This document shows, one piece after another, positions 763-35,035 of a DNA stretch of 64,000 nt. The number at the start of each line of letters is the position of its first letter. Within the stretch, counting starts at the first letter, position 1. Under the pieces are notes generated by a model, which did not search any database, was not told the origin of the DNA, and saw nothing but the letters and a program-made list of their open reading frames with translations. The stretch is from positions 27,592,001 through 27,656,000 of the forward strand of contig NC_087251.1 of NCBI RefSeq assembly GCF_037042905.1. The letters run 5' to 3'. This DNA comes from Lytechinus pictus. Lineage: Eukaryota. A program made the position numbers and the translations under genes.

Positions 763-1942
763 TTTTTGTCTCGCCTGCGTAGCGGAGCGAGACATAGGTA
801 TCACTATTTCCGGCGTCGGCGTCGTCGTCGTCAACAATTGTGTTGTACACCCAATAACTTTCTATAGCTTCGAGGTGGGATCACCAAATTCATACCAGAG
901 GTCCATCTCCTGAAGGCACAGGTCAAGTTCGAATATGAGTCAAATTGGAATAAGGTCAAAGGTCAATGAACTTTCCATGACTGGCACTGTGCTGTGTTGT
1001 ACACATAATAACTTTGTAAACCCAATAACTTTCTATAGCTTCGAGGTGGGATCACCAAATTCATACCAGAGGTCCATCTCCTGAAGGCACAGGTCAAGTT
1101 CGAATATGAGTCAAATTGGAATAAGGTCAAAGGTCAAAGGTCAATGAACTTTCCATGACTGGCACTGTGCTGTGTTGTACACATAATAACTTTCTATATC
1201 TTCGAGGTTGGATCACCAAATTCATACCAGAGGTCCATTTCCTGAAGGCACAGGTCAAGTTCGAATATGAGTCGAATTTGAATAAGGTCAAAGGTCAATG
1301 AACTTTCCATGACTGGCACTGTGATGTGTTGTACACATAATAACTTTCTATATCTTCGAGGTGGGATCACCAAATTCATACCAGATGTCCATCTCCTAAA
1401 GGCACAGGTCAAGTTCGATTATGAGTCGAATTTGAATAAGGTCAAAGGTCAATGAACTTTCCATGACTGGCATTGTGCTGTGTTGTACACACAATAACTT
1501 TGTATAGCTTCGAGGTGAGATCGCCAAATTCATAACAGAGGTCCATCTCTTGAAGGTGCAGGCCAAGTTCAAATGTGAGCCGAATTTGAATAAGGTCAAA
1601 GGTCAATGAACTTTCCATGACTGGCACTGTGCTTTGTTGTACACATAATAACTTTTTATATCTTCGAGGTAGGATTGCCAAATTCAAACAAGAGGTCCAT
1701 CTTTTGAAGGTGCAGGTCAAGTTCGAATGTGAGTTGAATTTGATTAAGGTCAAAGGTCAATGAACTTTCCATGACTGGCACTGCTGTGTTGTACACACAA
1801 TAACTTTCTATAGCTTCGAGGTGGGATCGCCAAACTCGTAACAGAGGTCCATCTAAATCATATAGCATACATGTAGTTTTGACATGCAGTCTCTTCATGA
1901 CTGCAATATGCAGGCGAGACAACGCTTGGCGTTTGCCTTGTT
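763..1942 (+). mobile_element. Non-autonomous Helentron-associated element (DINE-1/HINE type), family A
   Basis: T-run at 763, then sub-terminal IR tgtctcgcctgc (767-778) with a partial inverted copy gcgagaca (787-794). A (GTC)n microsatellite follows at 811-832, then an internal tandem array. The 3' end has IR gcaggcgagaca (1910-1921), hairpin aacgc-ttg-gcgtt (1921-1933) and terminus cttgtt. This order matches the described HINE architecture. Confidence 0.85.
841..1854. repeat. Satellite array inside HINE-A: 154-bp monomer, 6 full copies plus a partial 7th
   Basis: The aataact anchor recurs at 853, 1007, (1024, a 17-bp local duplication), 1185, 1339, 1493, 1647 and 1799. Confidence 0.97.
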
Positions 1943-4500
1943 AAACTTTGTTTTTTTATGATGAAATGGAAGGAAACCAGCTTTCACGAAAAGTGAACAT
2001 AGGGACACTCAATTGCATAACATTAATAACACAAATCTTATATATTCGAATACAAAACGACAAACTTATATCAGTTAACAAGTATCAATTTACTTTTTAA
2101 TGCGATCCTCAACAGCTCAAATTGACAACATTGAATGAAAATATCAAGAGTGTGTTTCCTTCCGTAAGCATCATCTCTTAACACACACCATGCATAATCC
2201 CCTTACTATATACATGGAGAAATATATTTCACTTGTCATTATGGTTCAAGGGGTACAAAGCTCAAAAGAAAATAAGGAATGATAATTATATGATAATAAA
2301 GTAATGCATATTTGTTTTATATTATGGCTAAGAAGAGTCAATACGATCGCTACATCGACCTCTGAATTTATATTTGCCATATTCAAGGGAAAAAACCCAT
2401 CCAATTATCTGTTTCGTTGCACCGTTAACTATTTATTATCCATTTATTCATAACCACATGTGTCGTATTATTTTTTACACTCTTTGCATATACAGACTGA
2501 GAGAAACTTTATCAAACGTAGGATCCATTTTCTCGGACTCGGGGCAATGATTTCACATCTTCATACGATGGTAGTGGGGAGAGAAAGGAGGAACGGTAAG
2601 GAGGAGAATCGGACGAAAAGAAGGCGGAGGAGGAAGAAGGCAAGGTAAGAAGTAAGACAGGTAGAGTGTTTTCAATATTATTTTATACAGATAATTACTA
2701 CCAGGTACACATATTGTGAGAAAAAAATGAGAGAGAGGAAGATGAGAAAGAGTGAATGAGTGAGATGGATAGAGACAGAGAGGGATGGAGATCCAGGAGA
2801 ATAAGTAAAATAACAATTGGTTTGCCGTGTTTTAAATGGTATCAAACAGCAAAAAAAAAAAGAATGGTAACTTATCGTTTATGCTTCATTATCAAAAAAC
2901 CAATGTATAAATAATTTCATGACTCTTTACTGTCCACGGATACACGATGCGTTTTGATAGGGGGTTAGGCGAAGAAAGTTTTGTTCTTATTGAAAAATAA
3001 AGATTGTATACTTCAACCGGATTTCGTTTGATTAAATCTTTCTTTCTTCGGACTTTTTATACCACTTTTCTCTCTTTATTATTTGTTTACTCACTTAAAA
3101 ATTCATCGGCAAGTCGCCCCCAGTCACTTTACGCCACCCAATTCAACAACGGTGGGGGGGGGGGGGGCACTGGCTTAGGGCAAGTGCTAAATTCCCACCC
3201 CCTTCCGATATCTGACACCGGTAGCTTATTAAGTCATTAGATTTAAATGTCAATTTATTTTTTTCCCTCTATTTTCCTTTCATCGCACCTGAAAATGTCG
3301 CGTCAGTTCTTATACATTTTTTTTTTCGCGCATATTTTAAACAAAACATTATATTTAGTATTTCAATTATTTCATGCCTCTCTTTAATGAGATCATTTTT
3401 TTTCAACATAGTGTTATTTAATACAATGCAAACCCTTTAAATTATTTGTTAGTTGGAAAATTACGTCACATGTCATTTAGTGCTATTAAGGAAATGGTAT
3501 TCAAGAAATCGATAGAAACCATGACGCTAATTGGCTGCTCATTACAAACGTTATGCTGCATTGTCATAGAACAAGGTCGTTGGCGGTCAAACTGTTACAC
3601 GAAACCCAAACAAATCAATATCACGTCAGGACCAAAATATATTGCTCAATTTCCCATTTGTAATCATTTTCAGCCCTTTTTTCTCATGTAAAATCTTAAT
3701 GTCTTTTTTCATTTCAATTCGCATAATTTTCTTTCTCAAAACCTTACTTTTTTAAACACTTGCCGTAGAGACATCAATCTGTCGCTCTGTCGAGAAGAGG
3801 GTTTCGAAAGAATTTTGTTCAGAAAGGCTATCACGAGGTACGAATCAAAATGGAACGAGAAGCCAGAGGGCGATTTGCGTGGTGGGCGAAGCGAAGAAGA
3901 ATAAGACGTTATTAACGGCCCATCAAGTGACTAGTATATATTTGGCCTCAGGAAAATTGGTCAAATGGTAATAAATACTACGTCATCAAGATTCGTCAAT
4001 TACTTTAGAGGCTATTTCAAAGAAATAAAACGTTTCTGTCGTTTTTGCCAAGGGACACAGATTTATTGGGGGTGGCTTATTTATCGCTACGTGATTTTTT
4101 CCCGTCGTAATTGAGATAGGTTAATGCGTCATTTACCCTGGACAGAAGAAGGTAGATCGTTCTCTCCATTTTATTTTTTTGTCTCTTTTACAAACAGATC
4201 CCAAAGACAAATTATAGCCATAGTAGCTTTCGTGAAGGAGCAGTTTTCGAGTTTTCGTATAGGACTTGTCCTGAACCCTTGCCTAATTTATAGAATTAAT
4301 GACGATAGTAGATAGTAAATAGTAGATTTAGATATTACGTAGAACATTCAATTTTTGCAATGACATGATAACGAAAATATTCAAAATCATGTATACCAAA
4401 TGTGCAGGATTTAAAGCGAAAGTTTAACCAAAACCGACGTATACCTAAAACGTAAGCCCACGCCCCTCCCTTTGATACACCAAAGCGTACAAACTAGGTG

Positions 4501-4654
4501 CAGTGGAATCGTGGCAGATGAGTTTCAACCCCCTCCACTTTTTTTTTAATAATCGTGTACAAAACATAAAAATTACCAACTCATGACTTCATGAGTGGTC
4601 AACCCCCCTACTTTTGGCTCAGCCCCCACTTTCAAAATCATTCCGCTGCCCCTG
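4501..4654. mobile_element. Degenerate short MITE with C-tract and CAG..CCCCTG ends
   Basis: Ends in ttccgctgcccctg and carries repeated ccccc(c)acttt motifs. The left end is degenerate and there is no clear TSD. Confidence 0.4.
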
Positions 4655-6302
4655 AATGACCATGACCCTTTAGATGTTCTGTTAATTCAACAACATGACT
4701 TCATGAGTATTTTCCTTTAATCAAGGCTAGACTACTTCAAGTTTTGATGGGGGAGAAATGAAAATATTACTAGCTTGTTACTGACGATCTTCGTTTATTT
4801 GCATAAGGTATGTGTTGTCACAAGGCTTGGCCGGTCGCAATTCGCTCTTCGCGTGCTTCAGATCTTCCAACAATCAACGCGAGTCATGTAAGAGCACGTG
4901 ATAGAATGTGAACTTAAGTCAGGTGATCATCATGGGTATCACGCGACGTCATCACATGATTGACAGGATACAAAAATGCCCATGTCATTTGAAGGTCAAT
5001 TATGCAAATGTCTGCAAAGCTATTATGTAAACCATGATTTAAAACCGGCCTTTATATCTAACGAGAAATCCATATTACATAGGACAATCATTCAGAACGT
5101 ACAATAAGGTGTGTAAAGTAACATGTTAATGAGCTCTTTCTTCGTTGAAATTTTAAACTTTTTATTCATCTAAAAGACATTTTAAATACAAAATGAATAA
5201 ATAAAATGTAATCCCAAATATCCGTAGAGATAATTATGTTCTGAACTTAAAAAAGTTGGAATTATTAAATGAAAAATAACTTTTCAGTAATTTTGTAAAA
5301 ATTGATATGAAATCCATAAACCTATAAAATATGAATGGGATAGCATCAACAAATCAATTATTATAATGCTATGTATTTTCATTAAAAAAAACCGTCGTTG
5401 CCATCGCCTGACAGCTCAGCTGACGCCATAACACAATGATAACTCGTCTCTTACAGCGCATGGTATTTTGTCCATTCCGACTCCGAAGCAATTCATATCT
5501 GTTTGGAAAGGGATTTGTAGAAATATTTATATTGCAATTTAGAGAAGTATGATGAAAATATGCTATATGAGTCCTCTCTATAGGCCCGGCTCATATTGGT
5601 GACATTTTGCTCACAGTAACCGAAGAAGCAATACAATTGCAATGTAGCATTATTGGAGAGGATATGTATATGCCTGAGTATGTGTGCGTGGGGGGGGGGG
5701 TGGGGGTTGGTCTAGGGGTTACTATGTGAGTTTGTGTGCAGAAAGTAGCCGTATTCTAAAATAATGACTGTTGCGTGCGTGGTCGTATTTGCACAGCATT
5801 TCCTGTTAACGTAATGTAGTAATGTTGACATCACTTGGAGAATACTTACTTATATCACGCAATAGCAAACACCGAGAGAAGTTTGAACAGAAATGTAACT
5901 CATCATTTTAACAGAATTTCATCGATTTCGATGTACCGCCGCCACAGCGCCATATTTACGTTATTCCTACATCGAATTGATTAGAAATATTAAATGGAAG
6001 CCGTTTCTGAATTTGCTTAATCATTTCGGAATAGACCCATGTTCGTTTAGGATCCACATTTCATGATTCTGTCACTCTTTATATCCTTCATCTCATCACA
6101 ACCCTCTATTATAAAGACTTAGCATGTTATAAGTGGATGGTCATTCTTGGGCTACTTTAAGTTGTCAGACCCAATCTTTCTAATGTTCTCATTACCCCCA
6201 CCCCCCTTCTCCGACTCCCTCTCTCACTGTCTCACCCTCTCTTAATCTCTCTGTGAGGATACATGACAACTTCACATCTTACACAGATAGTGTATATAAC
6301 AC

Positions 6303-6484
6303 CAGGCGGGTGTTTCATAAAGCTGCTCGTAAAGTTACGCACAACTCTACGCACGACTGGAACATGCTCTTAGGTCCTAAATGAATAACATAGGGATGTA
6401 TCACCTATATAGCACAAGAAGGGGTTACCAGTTGTGCGTTAGGTCATTCGTATCTTACGAACATCTTTATGAAACACCCCCCTG
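6303..6484. mobile_element. MITE, PIF/Harbinger-like
   Basis: Imperfect TIR of about 30 bp: caggcgggtgtttcataaagctgctcgtaa / ttacgaacatctttatgaaacacccccctg, with CWG at both ends. The superfamily call is inference. Confidence 0.75.
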
Positions 6485-6909
6485 AATTGGCAAGAAAGTC
6501 ATGGACTACATAACTTTATCCCCTCTTTCTGCCTGTCTCTTATCCCACTTTTTTTTTCTTTCTTTCTCCATTATCACCATATTCCCACACTACCCTCTGT
6601 CTTACTCTGTATCTACCTTCCATTTCGACCCCCTCCACTTCTCCTCCTACAACCATTCCCTCTCCATTCATCGCTTCTGAATATACCCCCCATCCCATGT
6701 ATCATCTCTTTTCACAATAAGCGGGTCGATTCTTCTTTTGAACATACCCTGTAAAGGTTCGCCTACACTCGGCATTGATATCAAACCCCTTTCAGTCTCT
6801 TTATGTTTTTTTTTTCGATGCCTGGTATTTCAGCTACGCCTTTTTGTCCTTGGAATTTCCCCGGAGACGCATAAGAAGCACCTTTTATTTTTAGCATCGG
6901 CATTCAGTA

Positions 6910-7110
6910 CACTCTAAAAAAGGTTTACACAATATTGGGTTAATTGGGAACATGCATGCTGGTTGGGTAAAAAGATACCCAATATTTGGTTAATTTTACG
7001 CAATGTTGTGTTGAAATAGCCCAATATGGGGTGAAAAAATACCCAGCAAACATGCATGTTCCCTTTTTACTCAATATTGGGTAGAATTTTACTCAGTGTT
7101 TTTTAGAGTG
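6910..7110. mobile_element. MITE with CACTCTAAAAA TIRs flanked by TA
   Basis: ta|cactctaaaaaa ... ttttttagagtg|ta, with internal inverted gggaacatgcatg / catgcatgttccc and repeated cccaatattggg-like motifs. Confidence 0.88.
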
Positions 7111-7648
7111 TAGTATCGATATTCCGCGCTCTTAGTCAATGACGGGAAAAATGTGATCTGAATATGCTGTAAGATGGATGTACCTTCTATGACGAAATCT
7201 ATCGAAAACACATATTGCCGGTGTTCTATCGAAAATATATATTTTAACGTTCACCCCTTTAACATGTCTTGTTAGAATCTAAACAGGTTTCGTACTTCAA
7301 ACATGGAGATCAAACGATTATTGAGCGTAATTGAAATCGGCCTTATCAAAGATGGAACATTGAATTATTTCGAATATAAGCCTTTCTTATTTGATGTTGT
7401 TTTTTAAAATCTAATTCTACCTTAATTTCATCAACTTCATTTGAATGAATTTATGTTTCGAGAGATGTTAACCTTATCAAAATGCAATTGATTCTAGAAA
7501 TCATCGCGTTGAAATTATACTATAATGGAATTTTGTGCTTCTGCTCATGTTTTGATTCAAGACTGTAAGTTTAATGATAAACTTTGTAATACATGGAAGG
7601 AAAATTAAACCTTTTTTGTATCACTGTTTGTCACTATCACTATTTTTA

Positions 7649-7888
7649 CACTGTATATAAACTATGGTGTTAAAACTGACACCAGTTGGTGTTAATAGGG
7701 GCCCACACCCTGAGGTATTAAAATTACACCCTAGAGATTGGACATAACGCCGAAGAGTGTAAATGTAACTACAAAATGTGTTGTAATAACACCTGTAGTG
7801 TTAAACTAACACTGGCAATATAACACCGGTGTAAAATAACTGATGTGGTCCTCTATGTACACCGGTTAACACGACAGTTTTTGCTGTG
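7649..7888. mobile_element. MITE with CAC..GTG ends flanked by TA
   Basis: ta|cactgtat ... gtttttgctgtg|ta, with internal repeated ggtgtt/aacacc motifs in both orientations. Confidence 0.7.
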
Positions 7889-9742
7889 TATATATATACG
7901 CCTTCTTCCATATATACATAATTTACATAATGTATTTTACATTCGTGGTTTTTGTACTACATTCATGATATTATTGATTTGTATATTCTCTATAAAAATG
8001 GATGAAATGTCAATCGGAATAAAACAAATGTTTAATTAAGTTGAATTGAATCACGGAAAGTTTAAATTATGTTTTCCGTCTTCCTCTTTTGGGACTGATA
8101 TGATTTTCTTTGGGGCCTATTTTAAGGGTAAGAAAAGGATTATCCGCATTCTGCAAAGACATATACAATATATCATGAAGAGAGAGGGAGAGAGAGAGAG
8201 AGGGGGATGAGAAATGGAGAGAGAGAAAGAGAGAAAGAGGGTGAGAGAAACTCTACTCTACTAGTGATAAGAGGCGCCGTGAGAATCGACCGGTTTGTGG
8301 TGTAAACCAGTTGTATTTAGTTGTTGGTGATGAAAACGCCGGAAGAGTTTGGTCTAGAGCAGACGACGTGTCTGTTCCGATGATTCTATGAATTCACACG
8401 TCTTGCATGCAAATTAGTCACATTCCCATTCATACAAGAATGAATGAAAACCGAGTCTGTGAATATTATTTTGGGGAGAAATAATACGTGTCGCTCACAA
8501 TAACTGGGAAAATCTTAGATTAACAGCGACAGTAGTGCAATAATTGTATTACTTACTGTCAAATTTTGTAGTTCGATAACCAGTAATCTTTCTCCTCTCA
8601 GTGATTTCAATAATAGATTACGCAAATGTACCTACAATACGAAATAGACAGGAACTCCATTCGATAAAAATGATAGAAATGTGGCCATATTTGTAACTGA
8701 AATTTGAAGAAAATGATCTTCGAATTGCAACACTGGTCAGTCATTATTTTATCATAGAAATGTTGTTGCATACCGTTTGTAGCAGTATCTTTGTATGAAA
8801 TTTCACCACATTATAATGTAAATCGTTTAATTCTCATACATCAATATATTCTAGGATTGAATCTTTTTAAGCAGGCCATTGGTGAAATGAACATTATAAA
8901 TCGCTAAAAGAACTCATCGTGTATCTATTTCAAAAGAGTATACATCATTAAAGTTACCCCGAACTGTAATTGCCAGAGGGAGGGCATTATTTTGTAGGCC
9001 TTCAAAGTGGTGCGTCAAGAAAACTGAGATTTAAGTACCAAGAATTCTCCTTTGTGGCACCAGTCTTCTATTTACTATCCCGGTGTAAAGAAGATCGTAT
9101 TCTTTATCTAGAATTTCTAAGATAAAAGCTGGCAAAGTAAACATTCTTTAACTCCAATCTCACGCAGGCCTGCTCTATTGGGAGACCCTACCCCAGACAG
9201 GCTACATTCATCCACACTCCAAAGAACTTCCAAAATGCAGGGATACAAAATGCACAGGAAACGCCTCTAGGCAGATTGGGGCACCCGACATCATAGCCGA
9301 AAGATTAATTGAAACCAACTTGGTTTCTCGAATGAAGATTGGAAAGTGTGAGAGGAGGATAAGAAACAGAGTACACCGGAAGTAGACGGAGGATAATGTG
9401 TCTAGTTTTTAAGACTTGGTTCCTCAAAGAAAGTGTGAAAGAAAGTGTCAAGTCGAGAACATGATATTGAACATCAATTTTAACAAAACATTGTCTTGTT
9501 TATGTATTCAACTTTCACAAATGTATGTTCTTTTTATTTCACATGATCTCTACGCATGTTTCTAACATTTTGTTTGAAAAATTAAATTGTATCATTTAGA
9601 CAGGAGCAGCGTCAGGGTATTTGGACGATGTGTCCAAGCACTCTATTTCATTATTCGAAATCCTTTTATCTTCTTCCTCCTTTTTTCTACTTGTGTGTTT
9701 TTATAATTGAAAAAAATCATAAGGGCGGTCGCAGTTCACACT

Positions 9743-10046
9743 CATGACCCTGGGAAATGGGGGAGCTGGGGGTGCTGAAGCACCGCCTAAAATTTCTTTT
9801 GGGTGCTGCGTGTATTATCCTCCGTAGGCAGCACCCCCAGGTATCCTGGAAGATGTGTACAAATTGAAAAATGTAACCATTATGGCTTTCGTTTTGTAGT
9901 GAAACCTCTCCCCTTGTTTCTTTGCTTTTCAAATTTGTCGGGACCAATTTGATCTCCATTTTGTAGTCAAAACCTTCTTCTTTTTTTTTTTGCTTTTGAA
10001 ATTTACATCAGCACCCCCAGTAAAAAAAATCGTTCCCAGGGCCCTG
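9743..10046. mobile_element. hAT-like MITE
   Basis: TIR catgaccctgggaa / ttcccagggccctg (12/14 match). Degenerate 8-bp flanking repeat ttcacact / ttcacccg. Internal gggggtgctg / cagcaccccc motifs. Confidence 0.7.
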
Positions 10047-18147: not shown

Positions 18148-18173
18148 GATATATATATATATATATATATATA
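18148..18173. repeat. (AT)n microsatellite
   Basis: Read directly from the sequence. Confidence 0.95.
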
Positions 18174-18464: not shown

Positions 18465-18651
18465 CATGGGGCTGTTTCATAAAGCTGTTCGTAAGTTAAT
18501 AGCTACTTTAAGAACGACTGGTGATCCTTTCTTACGCGCTAAACCATCGCCAATGAACATTTTGGTACATACCATTTACCACAAGAAATGATCACAAGTC
18601 GGTCTTAAAGTCGCTCTTAACTTACGAACAGCTTAATGAAAAACCCACATG
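18465..18651. mobile_element. MITE, PIF/Harbinger-like, related to 6303-6484
   Basis: TIR gggctgtttcataaagctgttcgtaagttaa / ttaacttacgaacagcttaatgaaaaaccc. It shares tgtttcataaagctg.tcgtaa and acgactgg with the 6303 element. Confidence 0.75.
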
Positions 18652-18991
18652 ACAATAAAGCCTCTCATGATAAGTTTAATATTTGTCTCAGACATAACAG
18701 AATTAGCATAATTATCTATTCATTTTGCAATTAGGGCCGTTTTCATTACAGACCAAGTAATATTTGAATAGACGCGTATTGATGGTTCTTTTCTAGTTAA
18801 TTAAGAATGATTAATTTTGAAAGAGAACATGTTCAGCAAGTTGCCTGATAGTCTGAAGGTTATCTAGGCCTCAAGGTTCATTGATCTCGAAATTCGATAT
18901 TCTAAATACATAAATTGTCTTTGCCAATAGTGGTCCCTATTTGATAAATGGTATAATCAAAGCAATGTAACGCGCTGGACTATAACCCTTA

Positions 18992-19187
18992 CACTCTTAA
19001 AAATGTTGGGCAACATACGGTCCACACAACAATTGGTTAAAACTTTATCCAATTCTGGGTAGTTTTACACCAATAATGTGTGCTTTGGGTGAAAACTACA
19101 CATTATTGGTGTAAAACTACCCAGAATTGGATAAAGTTTTAACCAATTGTTGTGTGGACCGTATGTTGCCCAACATTTTTAAGAGTG
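18992..19187. mobile_element. Fold-back MITE with perfect long inverted arms, flanked by TA
   Basis: 18990-19081 is the exact reverse complement of 19098-19189 (92 bp including the TA), with a 16-bp spacer. Confidence 0.95.
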
Positions 19188-19621
19188 TACATGTATATAA
19201 CTATCTGTGTAGGAATCCTGGATATGAGCTTTAATTTATAGTTGATAGGATACTGCTTGATATTACCTGGGGGCGATGTGACACCTCTCGAAATTCAGTG
19301 CAAATTTCGCGTTTCATGAATTTGTGTACACCATAGCAAATATTCATTTAACTTATAGCTATATCATTATAGCCTGGCTGTGGTGATATACATATAATAA
19401 GTAATCCATTTGAATATGTTTACAAGAAAATTTGACTAAAACAATAATATTGATATTAAAGTATTAATTCATCAATGGTAACCTATTTATAATTATGTAA
19501 TATGATTATATACTGTACATTAGTATTATTTTCAATGTTAATGAGTTAACGTTTATTGTCACGACAATACAACTTGTACTATTATATAATTATATTATAA
19601 CGTATCGAATTAAGTAATTCC

Positions 19622-20514
19622 ATTAACTTTTTTGGTGTCACATTGGATAATCTTTTGAGTTTTAAGTACCATATGATAACTGTATTACATAAGATAAGTA
19701 GGAATACTGGTTTAATTTACAAACTTAAGCATAGTTTACTTCATAAAAATCTGATAACTCTATACCATTCCATAATTTTCCCTTATTGCAATACTGTCTG
19801 GGCTACCAATGTAACCTCATGTGAATTGGACTCAATATTCAAAATTCAAAAGAATTGTTTACCTAGCACCATCCGCACCTTTATTTAAGAAATTGTCTTT
19901 ACTTAATATAGATGATATTAATAGGCAAGAACTCGCAATATTTATGTATAAGTACAAGAAGAGGTTATTACCCACTCCTTTTCAGATCTTTTTCAATACA
20001 ATAATCAAGTTCATAATCATAATACCCGTTCTTCCAATAAATTTCATTTATGGTCTATCAAGTCTAGTCACGAAGCTAAATCATTGAGTTATGTAGGTCC
20101 CAAACAATGGAATGAGATTCCCCAAATAATAACTAATTCACAATTTATATCATCCTTTAGAAAACAGTACAAAATTTTTCTAGTAAATGATTATTAATTT
20201 TCGCAGTTGATATCAATGCATTACTTGTACCATATCTACCCCCCCCCTCCCTTCGATTCGTGTCTTTTTGTATTCTTTGTTGTTGTTTTTTCCTCCTTTT
20301 TCCTACATTGTATTTACTATAATGATATGACATTCTGTGTTTTTTTTACTTAATATTGTTGTCGTTTTACTATGTTTTTGCGATCCAGCCTTACAGGTTT
20401 CTTATAACCTTCATGGAAAGTCATGCAATTTACTTTATTATCTAATCACATTATTTGATGTTTCTTTGTATTTTTATCCTATTTTGCGAAATAAAGATTG
20501 AATTGAATTGAATT
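19622..20514 (+). mobile_element. 5'-truncated, frameshifted non-LTR retrotransposon (L2/Crack/CR1 group): ORF2 C-terminus and 3' UTR
   Basis: Translated fragments across frameshifts: FFGVTLDNLLSFKYH..KISRNTGLIYKLK..LYHSIIFPY.CNTVWA, APSAPLFKKLSLLNIDDI..FMYKY and HNHNTR..GPKQWNEIP..SFRKQYK, with a stop at 20195-20197. AATAAA at 20490 is followed by a (TTGAA)n tail. Confidence 0.9.
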
Positions 20515-21389: not shown

Positions 21390-21518
21390 ACAGGCATCTT
21401 GTCGGTGACTTTCACCGACAGATTTGCTCTGAGCCAATCAGATGCAAGGATTTCAGCCGCTTGTAACAGCTAGAATGTGAAAATCACTTACTATTTTGTT
21501 TCGTGAAATGCTCCCCTG
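21390..21518. mobile_element. Partial Harbinger-like MITE containing a CCAAT box
   Basis: Right end tttcgtgaaatgctcccctg resembles the other Harbinger-like ends. Internal hairpin tgtcggtga-ctt-tcaccgaca and agccaatcag. Confidence 0.45.
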
Positions 21519-22436: not shown

Positions 22437-22812
22437 ATCTCTCTTTTTTTTCTTCTGTCTTTCTATAACTGTCACCCTCTCTCGGTATTTATTTACCTCT
22501 TTCTCCACCTTTCCCCTTTATAACTCTATTTTCTTTCTCTTGTTTATTTCTCTCTCTCTCTATCTCCCATTTTGTTCTGACATTTCTCTCCTCGCTCTCA
22601 ATTGCCCTTGTCTTATACTCGTTCACCTTGAATGGTGCGCCTCTCTTACAATTTAACTTATAATATTTTTGCCTTTTATTTTACCCTTTCTGGTCCCCCT
22701 TCCCCATCTCCCTATATAACTCTCCCCTTCTCGCTCTCTCTCTCTCTCTGTATTTTCTCTTTCTCTATCTGCATCCCCTCCTCTACTTCTCCCCATCCCT
22801 TTTAACCCCTTT
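22437..22812. repeat. Pyrimidine-rich (CT) low-complexity tract
   Basis: Read directly. Similar tracts occur at about 2575-2800, 6520-6710, 8178-8250, 20610-20770, 24590-24720 and 44710-44965. Confidence 0.8.
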
Positions 22813-23301
22813 AATTCAATATCAAGAGAAGATACCATTTCACACCCTTTTCCCCGATATGTACCATATATCCAAGCATTTTAAACATCGAACATGCATT
22901 ATGAGCCCGAGGTTAAAACTTTGAATATTGACTTTCATATGTACAGTATATCCCTTTCTATAATTTTTCAGTTTGTTACGAATACTCCCTAGCCCACTTC
23001 AAGCGTCTTGACATGCTTGAAGGGATGGGTTAAGGCATGTAAAGAATGTCACGTGATTATTTCCTTGTACGTGAAAACCTCGCCGTGGTGTCGACTGTAT
23101 GGAGGAAACTATTCCACATGAAACGATGGACTTGATTTTCTTCTTGTAATAAGATTATCGGTGATGAGGGTTTAATGGGCGACAGTCGTAGCACAGAATG
23201 CGCCAGAAAGCGGCACGAACTTCTTCTGATGTTTCAGGAGGTATTTCGACGGGGTTTCATGAAGTTGGTATCAAAAGAGGTCATTATCGTGGCGAGGCTG
23301 T

Positions 23302-23610
23302 AGTAGCCTCGTTCAGACCTGGGATCATGGTCGGAGTAAAATTATATTATGCATGGATTAAAATTTCAAAGATATTTATCTTATCACGAGCCAGACGTGT
23401 TTTGGTAGGAGGGAAATTCGGAGGAAGCCCAGACGGAGTATAGTCGGAGTATTGCCCGCGCGTCTAGACAGAGTTACTCCGACCTTCATCCGACTAAGAT
23501 ACTCCTGGAAACCAGCAGGTAGGAGGGAGGGAGTTGATAAATATCTTTGGGATTTTAATCCATGTTTATCAGAAATTTACTCCGACTACACAGGTCTGAA
23601 CGAGGCTACT
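23302..23610. mobile_element. MITE with (AG)TAGCCTCGTTCAGACCTG TIRs
   Basis: Perfect 20-bp TIR agtagcctcgttcagacctg / caggtctgaacgaggctact, extending imperfectly to about 80 bp. Internal gtcggagta / tactccgac repeats. Confidence 0.9.

Positions 23611-25857: not shown

Positions 25858-25861
<4 letters not shown>

Positions 25862-25918
<57 letters not shown>
25862..25918. repeat. (AT)n microsatellite, ~57 bp
   Basis: Read directly from the sequence. Confidence 0.99.
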
Positions 25919-25920
<2 letters not shown>

Positions 25921-28900
25921 TATGCTATGATGATGTTGGTGTCTGTTTCTCTTTGTTGAATATGCCAGAGACAGGAAACGGATCTGAAGTAGAAATGAAA
26001 CCAGTCTTTCTTTCTCTGTCCCTCTTTCTCTCTTCTAAAGAAGAAAAACAAGAAAGAAGAAAAAGAGGGGAAAGAAGAAGAGGATGAGGACAGTGGTGGT
26101 GGAGTTGGTGGAGCGGAAGAAAAAAGGAATATAAGAAAATGAAGAAACGAATAAGATCACAAACCGTCTTGCAGCTTGTCTCCACATTCGGTAAATCTTC
26201 CGTTCACCTGTTCGCTTGGTCAATGAGATGCGCAATTCCCCATTTGTCTTTACCTCATTCTATCTAGCAGGGACGAAAGGTGGTTCTTGCACCAGTTTCA
26301 CAAGGGAAATCTACTCTGATTTCAGGTTACTTTTAGAAGTGGACAAACTTAAGATGAATGTATCAATTAAGTTTTGACGAAAAAAACATTAAGGAATAAC
26401 AGATTTGTGCATTTTCTAAGTTTTACTTTTTATGACATCACATGCAAGAATCTTCCCTATGATGTCTAATTCAAATTCCATGAAGTACTATTATTGCCAT
26501 AAATTTCAGACCAGCCTGTGTCTCTTCCCCCGACTACGGAAGAATTCATATTTCTAATCCCGCGATTACACTTTAGATCAGTAATACTCCCCTGTACCAT
26601 GGCATGAAATCACACCTATGCGGTTTGGTGGTATCTAAAATGCCTAACGCGAAGTAAAAATAAACCCTGAACAAGAAATTTGCCATGTTTTCTTGATTGC
26701 TCTGTTACTTGAAGTGATTCAGCTAGCAATTTGTTTTCTAGAAGATGAACAAATGTGACATGAATGTATATATTTCAGCGAAAATACATATATATATTTC
26801 TTCCTGATGGTAACTTAATTGAATGTATAATCTTCTATAACCTTCACGTGAACTATTTTTCTATTTCTGTTACAATTTAGTATTTCACTTTAACTTTTTC
26901 TGTTACGATTTAGTATTGATTTCAATACTCAGACTGAGGTGATTCGTTAACTAGCAGCAGTGTTTGTTAGATTATTGATTACAGAAGATACATACATTAA
27001 TGTATTCTACTGAAATGACATTAATTATAACTAGATCATTTAACCTAAAATACTAGTAATTACATTAATCTTTAAAAAGATATATAATCTAACTTCTGAC
27101 AGCCCTTTTATCAAATGGGTGGTATGTTCTATTTTCTAACATCGACAGCCACTCAACCAACAAAGTTGACTCACCGCTAAATATAATTATTGACTTTCTC
27201 TGTTTATTTTTTTATTCAAAGCTCCGGTTACAGCAGATACTTTAAAACCGAATTCGTCATGGATGTACAAATAAAAACAACAAGCAAATAATTCAAAACT
27301 TTTTCCCTTTTCCGTTCTACTCCAGAAGTTCTGTTATCACCTGTTTAATGCTAGCAGCAAGATACTCTTCGTGAAATTCTTAAATAGAATCTAATGTACT
27401 ATGTGTATACTCGATCGCACGGCTTTTTTTTAACACAAGAAGATATCGAACCCTTGCGGGAAAGCGCTGCTTAAAATGAAAGCCTCACACCGGAATGGTT
27501 TTATCGACAAATTTATCCCCAGAGGTGTATTTAGGCACCGCTGGATGAGAAACCCTAATGTTCGGGACGGGGGACGTTTTGAATCTTTCTGCTGGAAAGC
27601 AGATGTAATTGCGCAACGACCTACAATCGGTAGCATTTGGATACCCTAGGCCTGATTTATAGATCAACCGTGAGAGGAACGACTTGAAGAAAGGTCAGGT
27701 GCACTTTATTCTTGGATATCTTAATAAACTAGAATACTTAACCATTTCCCTTTTCATCAAGAAAGTAGGCCAATGTAATGTTAGTGACGTTTATGGTGAG
27801 ATGTAGGGCGAGGTGGCTATGAAATTTTCATAAATGCTTTTGAATGGCGCGACCTCGAATTTCATCATCATGAGTGAAAACGGGAAATGACCGTTGATAA
27901 TTAATCTGAACATAGTCTATAAAAGGGAGACACAGAATAGACAGAGCTGTGGAGAAGAGGGGTGTAGAGGGGTTTGGGGTTGCATAGTGACTATGTATTA
28001 TGCTCTCAACTAAAAGCGCCAATTTCATTTTATTACGTCGTGAAAATATGTTATACGGTAGGTTTATTGTCATTTTCATACATTGAATGAAACAGTAGCC
28101 AAGTGTCACAAGTGTCAGTGCATCTTTTCTTTACCCTTTTTTTAACAATAAAATCACATTACTTACTAACATATGCATCGATTGAAATGGTGGTATGTTG
28201 TCGTTTCAGTTATTCTTCAGCAAAAGACTTTGAGTATATGTTTAACTAATTCTAACCCTATTGAACACAAATCTGCTTAAGAATAACTAAATGCTTCCAA
28301 AAATACTCCATCGTTTGTAAAGGAGTTTCTGTATGAAACGAATATACAAACTTCTTCATACATTTCCTCGTTATGATTATATATCCTTTACTTTTTGTAG
28401 AAATAAATGCAGAGATAATAAAAATAAATTAAGGTGTCGACTGTCGTATTTTTTTTTCAAATCCCAAATCTTAAATTGATACCGATTCGTAATATTTTAT
28501 TTCAGATGATTTCAACATGAGTCTGTTTTCGACCCAAAAAATGTTGCAACGCCTTTCTAGAGGATAGAGAGCCCACATACTTTAAAAATTAAAAATCCAG
28601 CAACCATATTACTATGGTTATCCTGATTGATTTGTTTACATTCATACCGATGTCTGTTTCACTGCCTCTATACCCTAAGGAAATCATATTTATAAATAGC
28701 ATGTTGAGATGACGAAAATAGATGGGTATGATAGCTAGCATTATAAGGCGGGCCTAATAAGGGTGACCCCCGCGGCTTGCCGTTCCGTCTTTCAATTCAC
28801 TGCTCTCCCTCTCGATCCGTCTTTTACTGCAAAACGATGAGGCTATTTCCTCTGGATATTTCTAGATTTATGTTGATATGTTGATAGCCTCAAGCGGCTA

Positions 28901-30714
28901 AAGATCTAAAAATGTGATCCAATACTTCTGTATAACGTATAAAAGACGGTTGGCAGGTGTCTAATACTAGTGGTAGGAGATAGAATCACGTGAAAATTAA
29001 CTGATAGAGTGTACTAATGTCAGTTTTAGATAATTATTTATGACCTAAATGTCATGCATATAAAACGCAAATTTACTGGTGTAGAGGTGATGTCAGCATT
29101 TATTTATTTTTTGTAAGCGTTTTTAACTCTGAAATGCTGCATTATACTAGGGCTAGTGTCAAGCGAGAGGCAAATGAAACGTAAACTATAATGTGCAAAC
29201 AAAGAAACAAAAAATACATTCTTGTATTTAATTTCTTGTACCCCCTAGGAAAAAAAAGGTCAGTGATATCGTGAAGGAAAATGTATTCATTAATTTTGTG
29301 CGAACAAAGCAACCGATTACTAGAAACAAGTGGATATTCTCTCCATCGCTTGCTTCGCTCACTTGTTCAAACAGAATGACTGCAATAGTCATGTATAATT
29401 AATTTGAGACTCTTTAAAGAAAATGTATTATTTAGATATCTCATTTTCCCTCGTATACGCTCAAATATCGGATTTTAAAAGAAACACAGAAAATATACAT
29501 ATATTCCATAGGTTTCGGAGAGCCATATTGAATATATTTTGATGACGAAATTACAATTTCGCCAAGTGTTTGTCGTTTTCCGGCTGCGCTGACAAGCAAG
29601 ATGGAATAAAGTTGTCTGAATTTGCAAACCTGTCCCTCATTCATTCGGTGTACATGTATCAATATCTACAACAAACAATTTATAGACAAGGGTCGAGAAG
29701 GGGCAATTTTTGGTTAATGGGAGAACTCGAAGGTGACCTTGACACCTATTAGACATCCTATACATAATAATCGGATGTCAATCTTCTTTTAGTTAAAGCA
29801 ATATGTTTTTGTTAGAAGCCCTTGGTCAAACAATAAACAAACAATAATAAACAAACACTCATCTCCAAATTAAAAAGATATTTGTTCGGATCACACACGG
29901 GCTTTTATGATTTTGTATTTATAATTGTATTGTTCTTCACGGAGGTTATCAGTGAAGACGTATAAGGTTTCGCTATTACTCTTCACCTTGTCGCATACAT
30001 GGTATAGTTGTTTTGTCCAGCTGATAATAAACGTAGTCATGGTAATTTAGATAAAGAGTGTACCGAGGAGCGTCACGGTCATAAACAGTAGCCATTTCAT
30101 CCACTTACTCTCATTCATTAACGAGTGAATAATGCCAGATTGTTTTTTTTTTCACGATGTAGGCGATACCCATCCCATCTCATCGCTGCGCCATGTCAGT
30201 ATCATTAAGCTATTGCATAGATGTGAATTATATTCTCGTCACTTTTCCGCTTTATTCTATGAATTTTGAAAGAGTAATATTCTAAGTTTACATGTAGATA
30301 GAAGATATAAGTGGCATTGGAGCTGAATTCCGTTGTGAAATCATTTCTGGTCTTTTTTTATGATAGCGATGCTAACTGCATTGTGTATTTCTCTAGTGAT
30401 TCTGATCCTTAGTAACTTTGAATCTGACTGGATGCACGGGAACTTCAAGGTCTAGTTTAACATCGTACTCGGCGAGAAGAAGGAATCACTTCTGTCCTTT
30501 GAATGTTCATGCCAGTCAGTCAGATCTTTGGCAAAGTTTAAAGAGCCTTACTGACTTTAGATGAAATTCAGGTGATAAAGTGATGTTGATAACCCAAACG
30601 TATTCTTTATTACCGCTTCTTTACTCACAAATGTCTTGAGTCGATACCCAAAATACCGTAAGACACCGAAAGACACCTAAGTAACGGAGGACACTGAGAT
30701 CATCACTAATCAGA

Positions 30715-30921
30715 ATGAACACGTGCAAAGATTACATATTATTTATAAAAAGAATAGAACTGGGAATCGCCTTTGTTTTTATTACGACAACCCTGCTCTT
30801 TATTCTTGGCTGTCCACGATTCCGACAACGCCATCACATTTTCCCATTCAACCTCGCTCTTGCTGATCTGGTTGGTGTAGTAATCTACGTCATTGTCGAG
30901 GTAAAAAGGATAAGGAATCAG
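30715..30921 (+). CDS. Exon 1 of orphan rhodopsin-class (class A) GPCR: N-terminus, TM1, TM2
   Basis: ATG at 30715, hydrophobic TM1 (LGIAFVFITTTLLFILG) and TM2 motif FNLALADL. Phase-0 donor CAG|gtgagg at 30921/30922. An alternative in-phase donor GAG|gtaaaa lies at 30900/30901. Confidence 0.88.
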
Positions 30922-31601
30922 GTGAGGTATTCCCTATCTTCGTGACATGATTTTTGTTTTCTTTTGATGTTCTCCAAAATAATGTTTCTCAGGAAATGTC
31001 TTTGTGTGTGTGTGTGTTTTAGAGATGGCAAGAAAGGTTAAAACAGGAATGACATTTTTCCCCCAAGGAGTAACCTCTGAAGCCGTATGTTTCATATTTG
31101 TGTGTAGGCCTACTGTTGATCGAAAAGAAATTATGAAATAGAGTATGGAAGTGATAATGTCATATTTTATCGTGACAGCATCGCATTCATTGCAAACGTG
31201 AATCCTACAATCAGGTTTTGTCCAGCGGTTTGTGCCTTAAACTTGCGTTGTTAGCGACCATTGCAATCTGAGATGCAAATTTGAAACTGCTTTTTTTTTA
31301 TAGATACGTCATGCCTCTCTACCCCATGGTACCAGTGATCTGTCCTCGATCGACTTCAATTAAATTAAGATTTAGAAAACAGTTGTTTCAATGAAATATT
31401 TCAGGATATTGCCCAGTAGGATTTGGCTAATGCGATTTATTTATGTATTTTCTTTATTCATCAGAAGAATATAGCGCCTCTGGGAATCCAATAAACAAGG
31501 AGAAAGTTTGTATGCGTACTTAGAAGATGTAATAATTTTCCATTCATTAATCTGTAATCGTAATATGAAACTATGAGTGTTATGTACTTTGTCTTTCACA
31601 G
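30922..31601 (+). other. GT-AG intron (680 bp, phase 0) of the GPCR gene
   Basis: Begins gtgagg and ends tactttgtctttcacag. Joining keeps the frame (…RIRNQ|VGSPV…) and gives 277 aa. Confidence 0.8.
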
Positions 31602-32228
31602 GTGGGGAGTCCGGTAATTACCGATGTCCTCATACCCGCGGTATATTCTTCACTTCTGGTGTCCAATATCAGTGTCCTATTAGTAGCTGTTTACCGATTC
31701 ATCACCATCAAGGTAGATCCTTTCGGCGTCAAGAACATCATCACCACCACCCGATGTGTCCTTTGTTGCATCGGTTCCTGGATCTTTGCAGGGTTGCTGG
31801 CCCTCCTATACAAGAGAACTCTTCACTATCACGTGATTCCGTTCTACACCACCACCATATCCCTAACAACGACCTCCATATGTTACGTTTTCATTTACCG
31901 CTCCGTTGCCAAGGTGTCTTCTGATGGCAACAGCCAGCTGGACGAACGCAAGAAGGAGAACCAACGGGTCTTGCGAACATTCTTGATGATTCTTGGCACC
32001 ACTGTTTTCTTCTCGCTGTACCCCATGGGCTTGTGGTTATACCTCAGTCGAAATTTGATGTCTGATCTCAGTCCGTGTTATATCCTTACAGAGGAGTTAG
32101 TCATCACGACCAATTGGATATCCAACTGCATCATCTACTGGTGGAGACTCAGGGAGTTTCGCGACATGATCTTTGTTTGGACAAGGCGTTGTAGCGCCAC
32201 CGTACGTGCTCATGCAGTTGTATCTTAA
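31602..32228 (+). CDS. Exon 2 of orphan rhodopsin-class GPCR: TM3-TM7 and helix 8
   Basis: Longest ORF in the window, with raised GC. TM3 end VAVYRF (DRY equivalent), TM4 Trp (IGSW), TM5 CYVFIY, basic ICL3 RKKENQRVLRT, TM6 FFSLYP, TM7 NCIIY (NPxxY equivalent) and helix 8 REFR. Stop TAA at 32226-32228. Confidence 0.93.
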   Translation: MGSPVITDVLIPAVYSSLLVSNISVLLVAVYRFITIKVDPFGVKNIITTTRCVLCCIGSWIFAGLLALLYKRTLHYHVIPFYTTTISLTTTSICYVFIYRSVAKVSSDGNSQLDERKKENQRVLRTFLMILGTTVFFSLYPMGLWLYLSRNLMSDLSPCYILTEELVITTNWISNCIIYWWRLREFRDMIFVWTRRCSATVRAHAVVS

Positions 32229-32242
32229 CTGATCTGAGCAAA

Positions 32243-32405
32243 AATAAATCTCTTAACTTTACAACTCAACGTCGATCGGTCGATTATTAAATTATGTGAT
32301 TTCCAAAGATCAAACGGATACAGCTAACGGTTACAGTAGGCAACGGTATAAGCTATCATCGTTGCGTATCTCTCATCTCCTTAGATCCTGCACGGGATCA
32401 ATAAA
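32243..32405 (+). terminator. Candidate polyadenylation signals of the GPCR gene
   Basis: AATAAA at 32243-32248 and 32400-32405, downstream of the stop. The hexamer is common in AT-rich DNA. Confidence 0.4.
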
Positions 32406-33083
32406 GAAATATACCTCACAAAATATAAAAAAATATCTATAACGAAGAAACAAAACGATGTAAAACCCACGATGGATTGCACATATTGGGAGGAAGAAAG
32501 AAACAACTGATTATACTTTTTCCCCAATAGCCCAACCTAAGTTTGTGTTATGTAGGCGTACCTACACTACATAGGCCGTGGGTTCTTGAATTCGTTCAAT
32601 TGGCTTAGTGTACGAAACTGATAGAATAACCAACAGAACATATCTTTTCATGCCAGTAGTCATCATATTTCTTTGATAATCCCACAAATATCAATTACTT
32701 GGAATATTACTCGGGAATTTCCAATAGGAAACTAAACTCTTGATCAACCGTTGCACAAATTTGATGTATTATGTACATTATATCTCGATATTATCATTCA
32801 TGTTTTCTCCTTTTTTTCAGAAGAGTGTGCCCCTAATTCCGCCAGACACGCCACGGTGTTAGCTGGAGAGCCGACATGTCATGAATAGTTCCTTAAGTAG
32901 TCTAGATTACCCCCAATGTGTACAGATTTAGCATGCGTGGGCAAGGCGCGGTTCAAAATATAATTGGACGCCCTTAAGGCCGTTCTCAATTTCTTAACCC
33001 GCCGAAATGTTAGTTTTTCATCATCCATGCTCGTTCAGGATTTACATTCTCTAATCCCATCTCATTGTGTTCTAAGCAACTTA

Positions 33084-33275
33084 CACTCTAAAAATATTTA
33101 GCCAATATTGGTTGGAGAGAGCACACGCATGTTTGTCATGTTTGTTGGATAAAAAAAAAATCGTTTTGAATTGCGTGAAAACATACCCAAGAAACATGTT
33201 TTCTTTTGCCAGCAATATCCATGCTCTTTTTATCCGATACTGGGTAAATTTGTTACCCAACTTTTGTTTACAGTG
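33084..33275. mobile_element. Diverged MITE related to 6910-7110
   Basis: ta|cactctaaaaa ... tttacagtg. Shares ccaatattgg, gcatgtttg, atacccaa and gggtaaa motifs. Confidence 0.7.
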
Positions 33276-33600
33276 TGAAAAGGTTAACATGATTAATGTA
33301 TTGGAATTTCAATAAAGCGATCCATATTCAACCTAAATACAAATTTTGTAACAGATGTTTATGCAGAGGAAATGTACAGGGTTATATTTTCTACATTTTT
33401 TCACGATTGTAATTTTACTGGATACATGTTTATCTAGCTCTTACTGATATCGAAATAACTTAATAATTTCCTGTCGTTCAATCAGAAAGTCAATAATAAT
33501 TATCAGCATGAGTTGTTAAAATATTTTTATCTTCGATATTTTGGTTCTATTTTTTCGAAAGAAACAAATTCTTTATAAAAACAAGTTTGGAAATAACATT

Positions 33601-33892
33601 CAGTGGCCCGTGTCCTGACTCCGACTTTAACTATAGCTAGACAATTGCCATACAAATCTCCAACACTAACAGTACATATTAATTTACCGCCTGAATTGAC
33701 ACTCAAATCATTGACTGATCAATAACTAAAATAGTTTTATTCACCATTAACATATGAAGAAAGAAAACAGTAAACACACAGACAAAAGAATATACGATGT
33801 AAAGAAAATTGTGGAATTGTCGGCTTCCTATAACTTTAGCACGCAGTTATATCATAAACTAGGTTAAATTGGATTTCAGAATAGGGACTAGT
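33601..33892. mobile_element. Degenerate Harbinger-like MITE
   Basis: Weak inverted ends ggcccgtgtcctgac / ttcagaatagggac. Recognised by resemblance only. Confidence 0.4.
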
Positions 33893-34336
33893 GAGCTCAA
33901 ATAGGAGAAATATTCATACATTCGAGGACGCAATTTAATATTTTCCTTTCAACGAACGGAATAAACTACCCATGAAGATGAAAGATACAGAACCATGAAT
34001 AGAGCCGCAAAGAATTTACAATTTGTACATCTTGACAGCTGTTGAGCTGCTTGAAGTATCAGCTTTCCAAAACAAAATTCATTACAGCTAACTAGATTTT
34101 AAATTCTTCCAGTGAATATATTTCTTTGAAACAAACGTAAGAATTGGAAATAATGTGAAAATATCATGTATACATTAATTTATAGAATTCTTAAAACGGT
34201 TGTCTTTTTATTACTACAAAAGGTTTAGGTAAAAATTGCAGATTGTGATACGTTGGTGTAGGATTTTTATGCCCCCGCAGACGAAGTCCGGAGGGGGCAT
34301 TAAGCGTTGCCCCTGTCCGTCCGTCCGTCTCTCGAC

Positions 34337-35035
34337 TTGGTTTCCGCGCAATAACTCCAAAAATATTTAATGGATTTTAAATTGTTTTGATGTGTAGGTA
34401 GATGAAACCAAAATACAGGCTAAGTTCGAATTCGGAGTCCGCAGGTCAAAGGTCACGGCTCATTAAATATGCGAGTTGGTTTCCGCGCAATAACTCGAAA
34501 AATATGAAATGGATTTTAAAAATTGTTGGTGTGTAGGTAGCCTATCCGATATGCGTCGGGCTAGTGGGCAAACTACTGACGGGCGAGGGCTTCGCCCTCG
34601 CCCGTCAGTCTGCTTCGCGCGACCAGTAACTTACCCACTATAGCCCGGCGCATATCAGATAGGCTATAGTGTGTAGGTAGATGGCACCAAAATACAGGCT
34701 TAGTTCGAATTCGGAGTCTGCAAGTCAAAGGTCACAGCTCATTAAACATGCGAGTTGGTTTCCGCACAATAACTCGAACCATATTTAATGGATTTTAAAG
34801 ATTTTTCGTGTGTAGGTAGATGACACATAAATACAGGCTAAGTTCGAATTCAGAGTCCGCAGGTCAAAGGTCACGGCTCATTAAATATGCGAGTTGGTTT
34901 ACGCGCAATAACTCGAAAAATATTTAATGGATTTTAAAGACTTTTCGTGTGTAGGTAGATGACACCTAAATACAGGCTAAGTTTGAATTCGGAGTCCGCA
35001 GGTCAAAGGTTACAGCTCATATATGCGAGTTGGTT
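34337..35035. repeat. Satellite array inside HINE-B: 139-bp monomer x4, second monomer interrupted
   Basis: aataact anchor at 34350, 34489, 34768 and 34907 (spacings 139, 279, 139). Confidence 0.96.
34538..34668. mobile_element. Small fold-back MITE nested in HINE-B
   Basis: TIR tagcctatccgatatgcgtcgggcta / tagcccggcgcatatcagataggcta (24/26). Direct repeat gtgtgtagg at 34529-34537 and 34669-34677. The insertion adds exactly 140 bp to the monomer. Confidence 0.9.

Follow-up and report, generated by a model that had tools for sequence, protein, structure and literature searches.

Two tandem arrays in a 64,000-nucleotide stretch of the sea urchin Lytechinus pictus genome (assembly GCF_037042905.1, contig NC_087251.1, positions 27,592,001 to 27,656,000 of the forward strand; hereafter the window, with positions counted from its first letter) raise the question of why monomers of 154 and 139 bp, which differ over most of their length, carry the same short boxes at the same distances. 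The arrays belong to two elements, HINE-A and HINE-B, that classify as HINEs (Helentron-associated interspersed elements), i.e. non-autonomous Helentrons, because both share one layout: first a 5' subterminal inverted repeat (subTIR) and an inner inverted repeat, then a GTC-type microsatellite, the array, whose last monomer is partial, a 3' subTIR and a short hairpin, with T runs outside. This layout matches the HINE definition given in the available portions of PMC7492417 and PMC4067079. Comparison of the two monomers with repeat families from other animals establishes, at the level of sequence, the homology, register and position of a core of about 80 bp. As a whole, we consider it on balance probable that this is an ancient core with fixed spacing that is required for HINE mobilisation, and that the AGGTCA-type half-sites downstream of it are an accessory.

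We re-measured the spacing within the window. The original prediction had named two 58-bp spacers between AATAACT and ACAGG, at 860-917 and 34914-34971, and both are exact. The distance from ATAACT to CAGG is 65 in all six complete A monomers and in three of the four B monomers; the remaining B monomer (34490 to 34695) is 140 bp longer, i.e. by the length of a 129-bp inserted element plus an 11-bp duplication. ATAACT lies 71 bp ahead of the anchor AAGTTCGA in every intact monomer of both arrays, and AGGT..AT, which had been claimed to sit at an equal offset, does so, 26 bp ahead of AAGTTCGA. With the start of AAGTTCGA (925 in the first A monomer) taken as position 0, the core of that monomer consists, on the plus strand, of box I (AATAACT, 853-859, i.e. 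-72 to -66), a box at -39 that had been overlooked (886-891; AAATTC here, AAAYTT in foreign families), AGGT at -26 (899-902; also in foreign loci and, by hand count, in oyster CL8) and box II (ACAGGTCAAGTTCGAAT, 918-934). In array B, box I starts at 34351, 34490, 34769 and 34908 and the anchors (AAGTTCGA) at 34422, 34701, 34840 and 34979, all on the plus strand. The claim of identical box spacing therefore holds as far as box II. It fails for DR1 (AGGTCA-N-AGGTCA, a direct repeat with a one-nucleotide spacer), whose distance from CAGG is 34 bp in array A but 27 bp in array B, and GAGTC, thought to be equally spaced, is one base off between A and B. The spacers are diverged as described, being identical at only 18-21 of 58 positions, although composition predicts 14.6, so that they are faintly homologous rather than unrelated. 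The local alignment of A with B scored 125, a value reached by none of 2000 shuffles (mean 73.9, sd 9.9, maximum 121), and all 11 occurrences of AGGTCAAAGGTCA with at most one mismatch in the window, where 0.13 would be expected, fall within the two arrays.

The same register was found outside the window. Metagenome contigs were scanned for AAGTTCGA followed by DR1, with everything upstream kept out of the search pattern, which gave at least 120 loci, about 70 of those listed coming from one assembly group (hand count). Exons flanking these foreign loci (LIM, NACHT, C2H2, SHPRH, BOP1 and others) indicate eukaryotic, animal-like hosts. A GT-type microsatellite lay 40-170 bp upstream in 75 of the 113 loci listed, compared with 63 of 570 control windows, and mostly ended 71-90 bp ahead of the anchor; subTIR pairs were present in 7 of 29 loci examined and in none of 29 shuffled ones. 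Six clusters had at least four members (F37, F33, F40, F19, F4 and F23). Five foreign repeat families, at 29-65% identity, show the register of about 80 bp free of gaps: AAGTTCGA at 0 is preceded by AAAYTT at -39 and, at -71, by a box resembling ATAACT, and often (28 of 112 loci listed) also by AGGT at -26. Four of these, F37, F33, F40 and F19, align best unshifted with both window monomers (34-54% identity), and the fifth is tandemly arrayed in short contigs from a scan of genome contigs; the alignment of F23 to the window monomers was mixed. The 22 loci of the genome-contig scan include four short repeat contigs with the module (L144, L146, L148 and L159) and a repeat with half-sites only (L156), while the remaining loci look like chance matches or bacterial 7-mer runs. 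These five repeats are eukaryote-like, have AGGTCA ladders and are binned in two bacterial assemblies, where they are probably contamination. Scans of viral contigs returned chance-looking matches only: 16 that had neither the window spacing nor DR1, one inside a phage gene and 11 without element context.

We used a gap-free profile of four foreign families only, with the letters of the search pattern excluded, to score every offset of the window monomers. The true register ranked first of 308 offsets in one A monomer and first of 278 in one B monomer, scores that shuffles reached 4 times (A) and once (B) in 20000, and it ranked first and second when spacer columns alone were used. The profile's other top matches in the window (51781, 51916, 49498, 21373, 54426 and 26333) are not HINEs. 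Only the gap-free profile recovered the register: nhmmer profiles of the foreign families gave nothing significant in the window (best E 0.82). When each family was left out in turn, the best offset was 0 in all seven families tested, and 17 of the 21 family pairs, at 29-65% identity, align best at offset 0. Outside the search pattern, AAAYTT at -39 is the most conserved block, with a mean pairwise identity across the seven families of 0.65, compared with 0.50 for box I and 0.34-0.40 for the spacers.

Oyster HINEs (Cg_HINE; Vojvoda Zeljko et al. 2020, PMC7492417) extend the comparison to bivalves. In their array table, CAAGTTCGAA and its inverse TTCGAACTTG have 224 and 257 matches, the rows shown being mainly of clusters CL8 and CL9, which the sections of that paper available to us class as unrelated to any other element. 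The register was counted by hand on two supplement rows, row 7 (CL9) and row 326 (CL8). Ahead of AAGTTCGA, CL9 has CGCTCT at -75 (as in F37), GGATTTT at -50 (as in HINE-B) and AAATTT at -39, past which 10 of 11 letters are as in HINE-A; CL8 has TTTCCG at -81 (as in HINE-B), CT at -67, AAATTT at -39 and AGGT at -26. The suggestion that a constrained module with fixed spacing is spread by HINEs is thus supported beyond the window, in five foreign families and, by hand count, in CL8 and CL9. Two conserved segments are also described in the same source as common to CL1/2/10/13 and the otherwise dissimilar CL4, and a weaker lead, again a hand count, is that CgiSat08 and CgiSat01b (Cg170) have the same 28-bp distance from CT to AAAYTT. 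Oyster CL6 (PMC7492417) and CgiSat21 (PMC8268682), as far as given there, are rich in AGGTCA/TGACCT half-sites, including DR0 pairs (direct repeats without a spacer), with no evident core.

The DR1 had been listed among the conserved boxes. It reads instead as a slice of a slippage-prone 7-bp AGGTCA ladder, because gaps step by 7 bp, ladders vary and a rung has been added in one A monomer. The distance between AAGTTCGA and DR1 equals 6 modulo 7 (6, 13, 20 etc.) in 89 of the 120 loci listed, where about 19 would be expected, and the window gaps of 13 and 20 fit the same steps; at 1124-1143 in array A there are three rungs instead of two. In foreign loci the 52 bp past the anchor hold ladders of 2-7 half-sites, DR0 and DR1 mixed, with TCAAGGTCA in 91 and DR0 in 81 of the 120 listed. 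A perfect DR1 is present in all six A monomers (in the first at 953-965, plus strand, i.e. two rungs) but in only two of the four B monomers (DR1 starts at 34443, 34722, 34861 and 35000, plus strand), and the copy at 35000-35012 has one mismatch. In the oyster array table DR1 is nearly absent (AGGTCAAAGG 1 match, CCTTTGACCT 2 matches). With its distance variable in 7-bp steps and the oyster arrays essentially lacking it, DR1 is not the centre of what is conserved.

The alternative that survives best, although we regard it as unlikely, is that the half-sites themselves are the functional unit of a mobile nuclear-receptor array, with host receptors tethering, silencing or activating the element. 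Strict half-sites occur at 15.4 per kb in HINE-A and 6.7 per kb in HINE-B, compared with 0.52 in the rest of the window, i.e. at 13-30 times the background, and all 24 are on one strand. This density and strict strandedness make receptor binding to the ladder a plausible prediction. AGGTCA-type sites are bound by COUP-TF, TR2/TR4, RXR and HNF4, and DR0 and TCAAGGTCA by GCNF, NR5A and ERR. Families F37 and F33 have extra half-sites upstream of the search pattern, in both orientations (13-20 per kb compared with 1.5 in their flanks), and DR1 varies at 0 of 13 positions among HINE-A copies. There is also precedent, in the parts of these papers at hand, for high-copy repeats that carry AGGTCA-type half-sites, i.e. 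COUP-TF2/TR4 on TCAGGG variant repeats of telomeres maintained by alternative lengthening (PMC3518223) and Alu-borne HNF4 and DR2 sites (PMC3252374, PMC1785376), although binding is shown in those systems and only predicted here, where the carriers are invertebrate rolling-circle DNA elements. However, oyster CL8 and CL9 keep the core without DR1, upstream of the pattern half-sites are absent from families F40, F19 and F4, and the metagenome set was itself selected for DR1. In addition, any tandem duplication of the 7-mer yields a DR1, and bacterial genomes (L138, L149 and L153), which lack these receptors, have runs of 3-4 rungs. Nor is the invariance of DR1 among HINE-A copies special to it: the adjoining family-specific linker varies at only 1 of 41 positions (both figures from 40 of 54 variant rows). 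The ladder would therefore best be described as an accessory that differs between lineages, gains or loses 7 bp at a time and may bind nuclear receptors without being required.

Where the core is conserved gives an indication of when it might act. The boxes had been expected to be more conserved than the spacers, and between families they are, as the block at -39 illustrates. Among copies within families they are not: cross-family-conserved columns compared with the rest gave 0.81 and 0.78 in F37 (p 0.18), 0.85 and 0.86 in F33, and 0.92 and 0.90 in F40, and among HINE-A copies in four read runs, variable positions make up 5 of 37 in the boxes and 14 of 58 in the spacer (p 0.29). Conservation between families but not among the copies of a family points to a constraint at the level of transposition, i.e. 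the core would be filtered when elements amplify and not by the host keeping particular insertions. Of the roles first proposed, a cis-signal for transposition or amplification fits this pattern best. Invariance of spacer length, likewise predicted, was seen as offset 0 across the chosen families and broke down in part of the other loci, with shifts of 1-7 bp.

The structural tests narrowed what kind of signal this could be. There was no shared secondary structure on either strand across the families, and the monomers folded no better than shuffles (z -1.2 to +0.3), so that the core signal is not a hairpin. The idea of a nucleosome-scale or helically phased module found no support, with p = 0.20 for a 10-11 bp periodicity over seven families, a test of low power. 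Given the lack of a common fold and of a 10-11-bp rhythm, we lean towards a set of protein contacts spaced along double-stranded DNA, the simplest mechanism compatible with these sequences. In such a mechanism, the core would be a protein-binding platform with three or four short contacts (at about -71, -39, -26 and 0), needed for mobilisation by the machinery of a helper Helentron or by a host cofactor. Only source elements that keep the spacing would found new families, and inserted copies would decay freely.

The satellite-like appearance of the arrays can be accommodated in the same scheme. In the nine fully shown loci of F40, F37, F33 and F4, the first three of these families have one copy of the module, right after the microsatellite. 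Since foreign elements mostly have a single core, after their 5' microsatellite, the satellite monomers have the appearance of a core of the element itself, repeated in tandem. We suggest that both window monomers descend from one ancient core of about 80 bp just inside the HINE 5' end, past the microsatellite, which many elements would have kept single, and that HINE-A and HINE-B duplicated it in tandem together with neighbouring DNA to give what looks like a satellite. The order of events, i.e. a single core first and tandem duplication later, would follow from this scheme.

We also considered that the core might be a directional promoter or RNA element, with own-strand transcription or RNA stabilisation explaining the spacing. 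In one RNA run (X24), 1734 of 8.7 million reads (about 200 per million) fell on 756-1006, and more than 99% of the depth across the HINE-A 5' end and monomer was on one strand: first mates covered the monomer at a depth of about 1130-1300 on the minus strand and 0-5 on the plus strand, and the 5' end at about 300 and 2. The reads seem to come from several loci, because they fall into two 5' subfamilies and their upstream flanks are heterogeneous (agreement 0.45 over 85 reads and 0.52 over 129). With a library of the usual kind, this RNA would be of the element's own strand, entering from upstream. No strong bias in insertion orientation was seen in foreign hosts, with neighbouring exons on the element's strand in 7 of 11 loci with Pfam matches (among 290 of 879 candidate frames) and balanced flank skews (37 of 77). 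Against a promoter, there was no sharp start or end inside 756-1006 and most reads at the 5' end run on into the flank. Furthermore, X24 is a single run, from an organism that is not the richest in HINE-A DNA, and its library chemistry is assumed. Marine metagenome RNA runs with shares below 0.2 were left out. Promoter activity, a gene-orientation bias of insertions in the sea urchin and strand-specific decay could each produce the one-strand signal. A search for a tRNA-like head or an Rfam family returned nothing (ARAGORN 0; Rfam 0 at gathering thresholds). We take GTTCGA to lack the C expected at the end of an RNA polymerase III B box. In a related clam element, complete A and B boxes were not found, according to the portion of PMC3879986 consulted. 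Taking these points together, we judge a promoter or RNA role improbable. Similarly doubtful, although a little less so, is a broader proposal in which HINEs of bilaterian phyla have this spacing-constrained core in common, the core recruits host orphan nuclear receptors and drives strand-specific RNA where a lineage has the AGGTCA ladder, many invertebrate 'satellites' are its tandem copies, and thousands of receptor-responsive sites have been seeded in marine animal genomes.

The least probable alternative is a neutral relic of a shared ancestor, passed on by descent or horizontal transfer, in which boxes have not yet mutated and few indels plus ascertainment give equal spacing; spacers that keep weak identity, drifting box letters, a lack of box-specific conservation among copies within families, the existence of shifted families and searches anchored on the boxes all suit it, but zero net indel over 72 bp in families only 29-54% identical (echinoderm, bivalve and at least three assembly sets) would be hard to obtain without constraint, and columns that were no part of the search pattern also gave the register, as did oyster sequences without half of that pattern.

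Several observations weigh against a required core with fixed spacing. Neither an autonomous partner nor a protein was found, and the role of the core is proposed from sequence comparison. Exact ATAACT at -71 is present in only 5 of the 112 foreign loci listed, i.e. the box letters drift; the 5 loci of family F4 have a shift of about -6; and of 51 loci not in the seed families 16 were positive, 5 of them at offset 0 and the other 11 displaced by 1-7 bp. The five foreign families were picked for looking in register, so that seven of seven overstates the rule, and a single assembly group dominates the metagenome loci. Box II and the DR1 columns formed the search pattern, so that the within-family comparison in the foreign families covers the other columns. 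A role purely at the level of DNA leaves the one-strand RNA of X24 unexplained. Finally, mite HINEs lack the inverted repeat and core of Drosophila HINEs in the account available from Thomas et al. 2014 (PMC4067079), which implies that there is no core needed by every HINE.

The two carriers, both on the plus strand, differ in detail. HINE-A occupies 763-1942, and reads from its other copies part from the window sequence at 762/763; read sets show it at high copy number in three organisms. Its 5' end has a 16-bp subTIR (766-781, one mismatch to the inverse of 1907-1922) whose hairpin partner is the inner inverted repeat at 787-794, and the segment 762-812 folds at z -3.9. A (GTC/GGC) microsatellite (811-832, with length variants among reads) precedes the array (845-1854; tandem period 154), which has six complete monomers of the 154-bp type and a seventh truncated from about 1800, as well as a 17-bp partial duplication near 1008; in other copies of HINE-A the array is truncated at the same point. 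The 3' subTIR (1907-1922) and a hairpin with a 5-bp stem (1921-1933) complete the 3' end (1907-1933). HINE-B spans 34264-35169, its ends being read off the sequence, and begins with an 11-bp subTIR (34268-34278) and an inner inverted repeat (34293-34300), together 34268-34300; here 34262-34312 folds at z -2.5. A (GTCC)3 GTCT microsatellite (34315-34330) is followed by the array (34333-35035; tandem period 139) of four 139-bp monomers, then a degenerate partial copy to about 35120, and by the 3' subTIR (35128-35138, one mismatch) and a hairpin with a 6-bp stem (35140-35154), together 35128-35154. T runs border both elements on both sides. Neither HINE has a coding frame, the minus strand of array A having just two stop-to-stop frames of 94-104 aa. 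The element inserted in the second B monomer (34538-34666, 129 bp, strand unassigned) has terminal inverted repeats of about 26 bp, starts with TAG and ends with CTA, and has an inner hairpin and the 11-bp duplication, with one mismatch; its ends presumably resemble those of Academ transposons.

Other features of the window lie outside the two HINEs. Directly upstream of HINE-A, 553-770 holds about three diverged copies of a 70-bp unit that by eye are unlike the monomers. A 219-residue frame at 31569-32228 (plus strand), about 2 kb upstream of HINE-B and on the same strand, is an exon or gene of a rhodopsin-type G-protein-coupled receptor, 97% identical to a protein of that family in Lytechinus variegatus. 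There is a 97-bp inverted repeat at 18990-19189 (98% perfect, 6-nt loop), a 69-bp inverted pair at 18465-18651 related to 6416-6490, and a dispersed repeat with two copies about 91% alike and 24.5 kb apart (37266-37541 and 61724-62020). Frames at 19601-20087 (plus strand) resemble by eye the decayed end of the reverse transcriptase of a long interspersed element.

How does this core compare with known systems? The central domains of the CORE, V, Deu/Nin and Meta superfamilies of short interspersed elements (SINEs) are likewise short internal domains that cross phyla, with unrelated ends and of unknown function. Their carriers are tRNA-headed retroelements, whereas the HINE core has no tRNA or Rfam match, and its spacing is conserved more than its letters. 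Among other HINEs, DINE-1 of Drosophila may have a similar arrangement of boxes past its microsatellite. The closest relatives are the oyster Cg_HINE elements, which have the anatomy of the window HINEs (5' subTIR, inverted repeat, GTCY microsatellite, central repeats of 140-180 bp, 3' subTIR, hairpin and T-rich target) and, by hand count in CL8 and CL9, a core whose register is that of the sea urchin elements; their monomers lack the DR1 ladder, and neither a cross-phylum core nor a rule of spacing is put forward in the text at hand of PMC7492417. DINE-1 of Drosophila (Yang and Barbash 2008, PMC2374699; PMC4067079) has HINE anatomy and a core of about 90 bp, conserved in 12 species, for which a part in transposition has been proposed. 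On its description in the parts of those papers we drew on, the DINE-1 core is set apart by a (TA)4 repeat in block A and is reported only in Diptera, and the central repeats of DINE-1 are called non-homologous between species. In Pearl, DTC84 and Tsp of bivalves and sea urchin (Satovic and Plohl 2013, PMC3879986), core repeats adjoin a tetranucleotide microsatellite, one end is truncated, variability is uneven along the monomer and similarity between species is 57-63%; the passages we had describe no boxes in fixed register and no half-site ladder, and deem only the dinucleotide target conserved across all. HINEs with central repeats, conserved segments shared by some monomers and a Drosophila core were thus already known from the portions used of PMC7492417, PMC2374699 and PMC3879986. 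The parts of PMC8268682, PMC11136912 and PMC8615465 consulted added nothing on the core module. In the text and some supplements of open-licence papers, we found no description of the register or of receptor binding on HINEs; by that measure, what appears to be new is a gap-free core common to echinoderm and bivalve HINEs, together with its probable tandem amplification as the source of the monomers.

PMC7492417 and PMC2374699, as far as seen, leave open whether HINE central repeats are captured or intrinsic and which internal sequences Helentrons need. The presence of the core in register across sea urchin, oyster and other animals argues for an intrinsic origin of the central repeats. It also unites satellite families that were published as unrelated and provides a profile with which highly diverged HINEs can be sought. 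Its four short boxes and the distances between them are defined targets for mutation in assays of mobilisation or binding. If it is true that the ladder binds receptors or explains the one-strand RNA, then a high-copy element would be a regulatory player in a model embryo.

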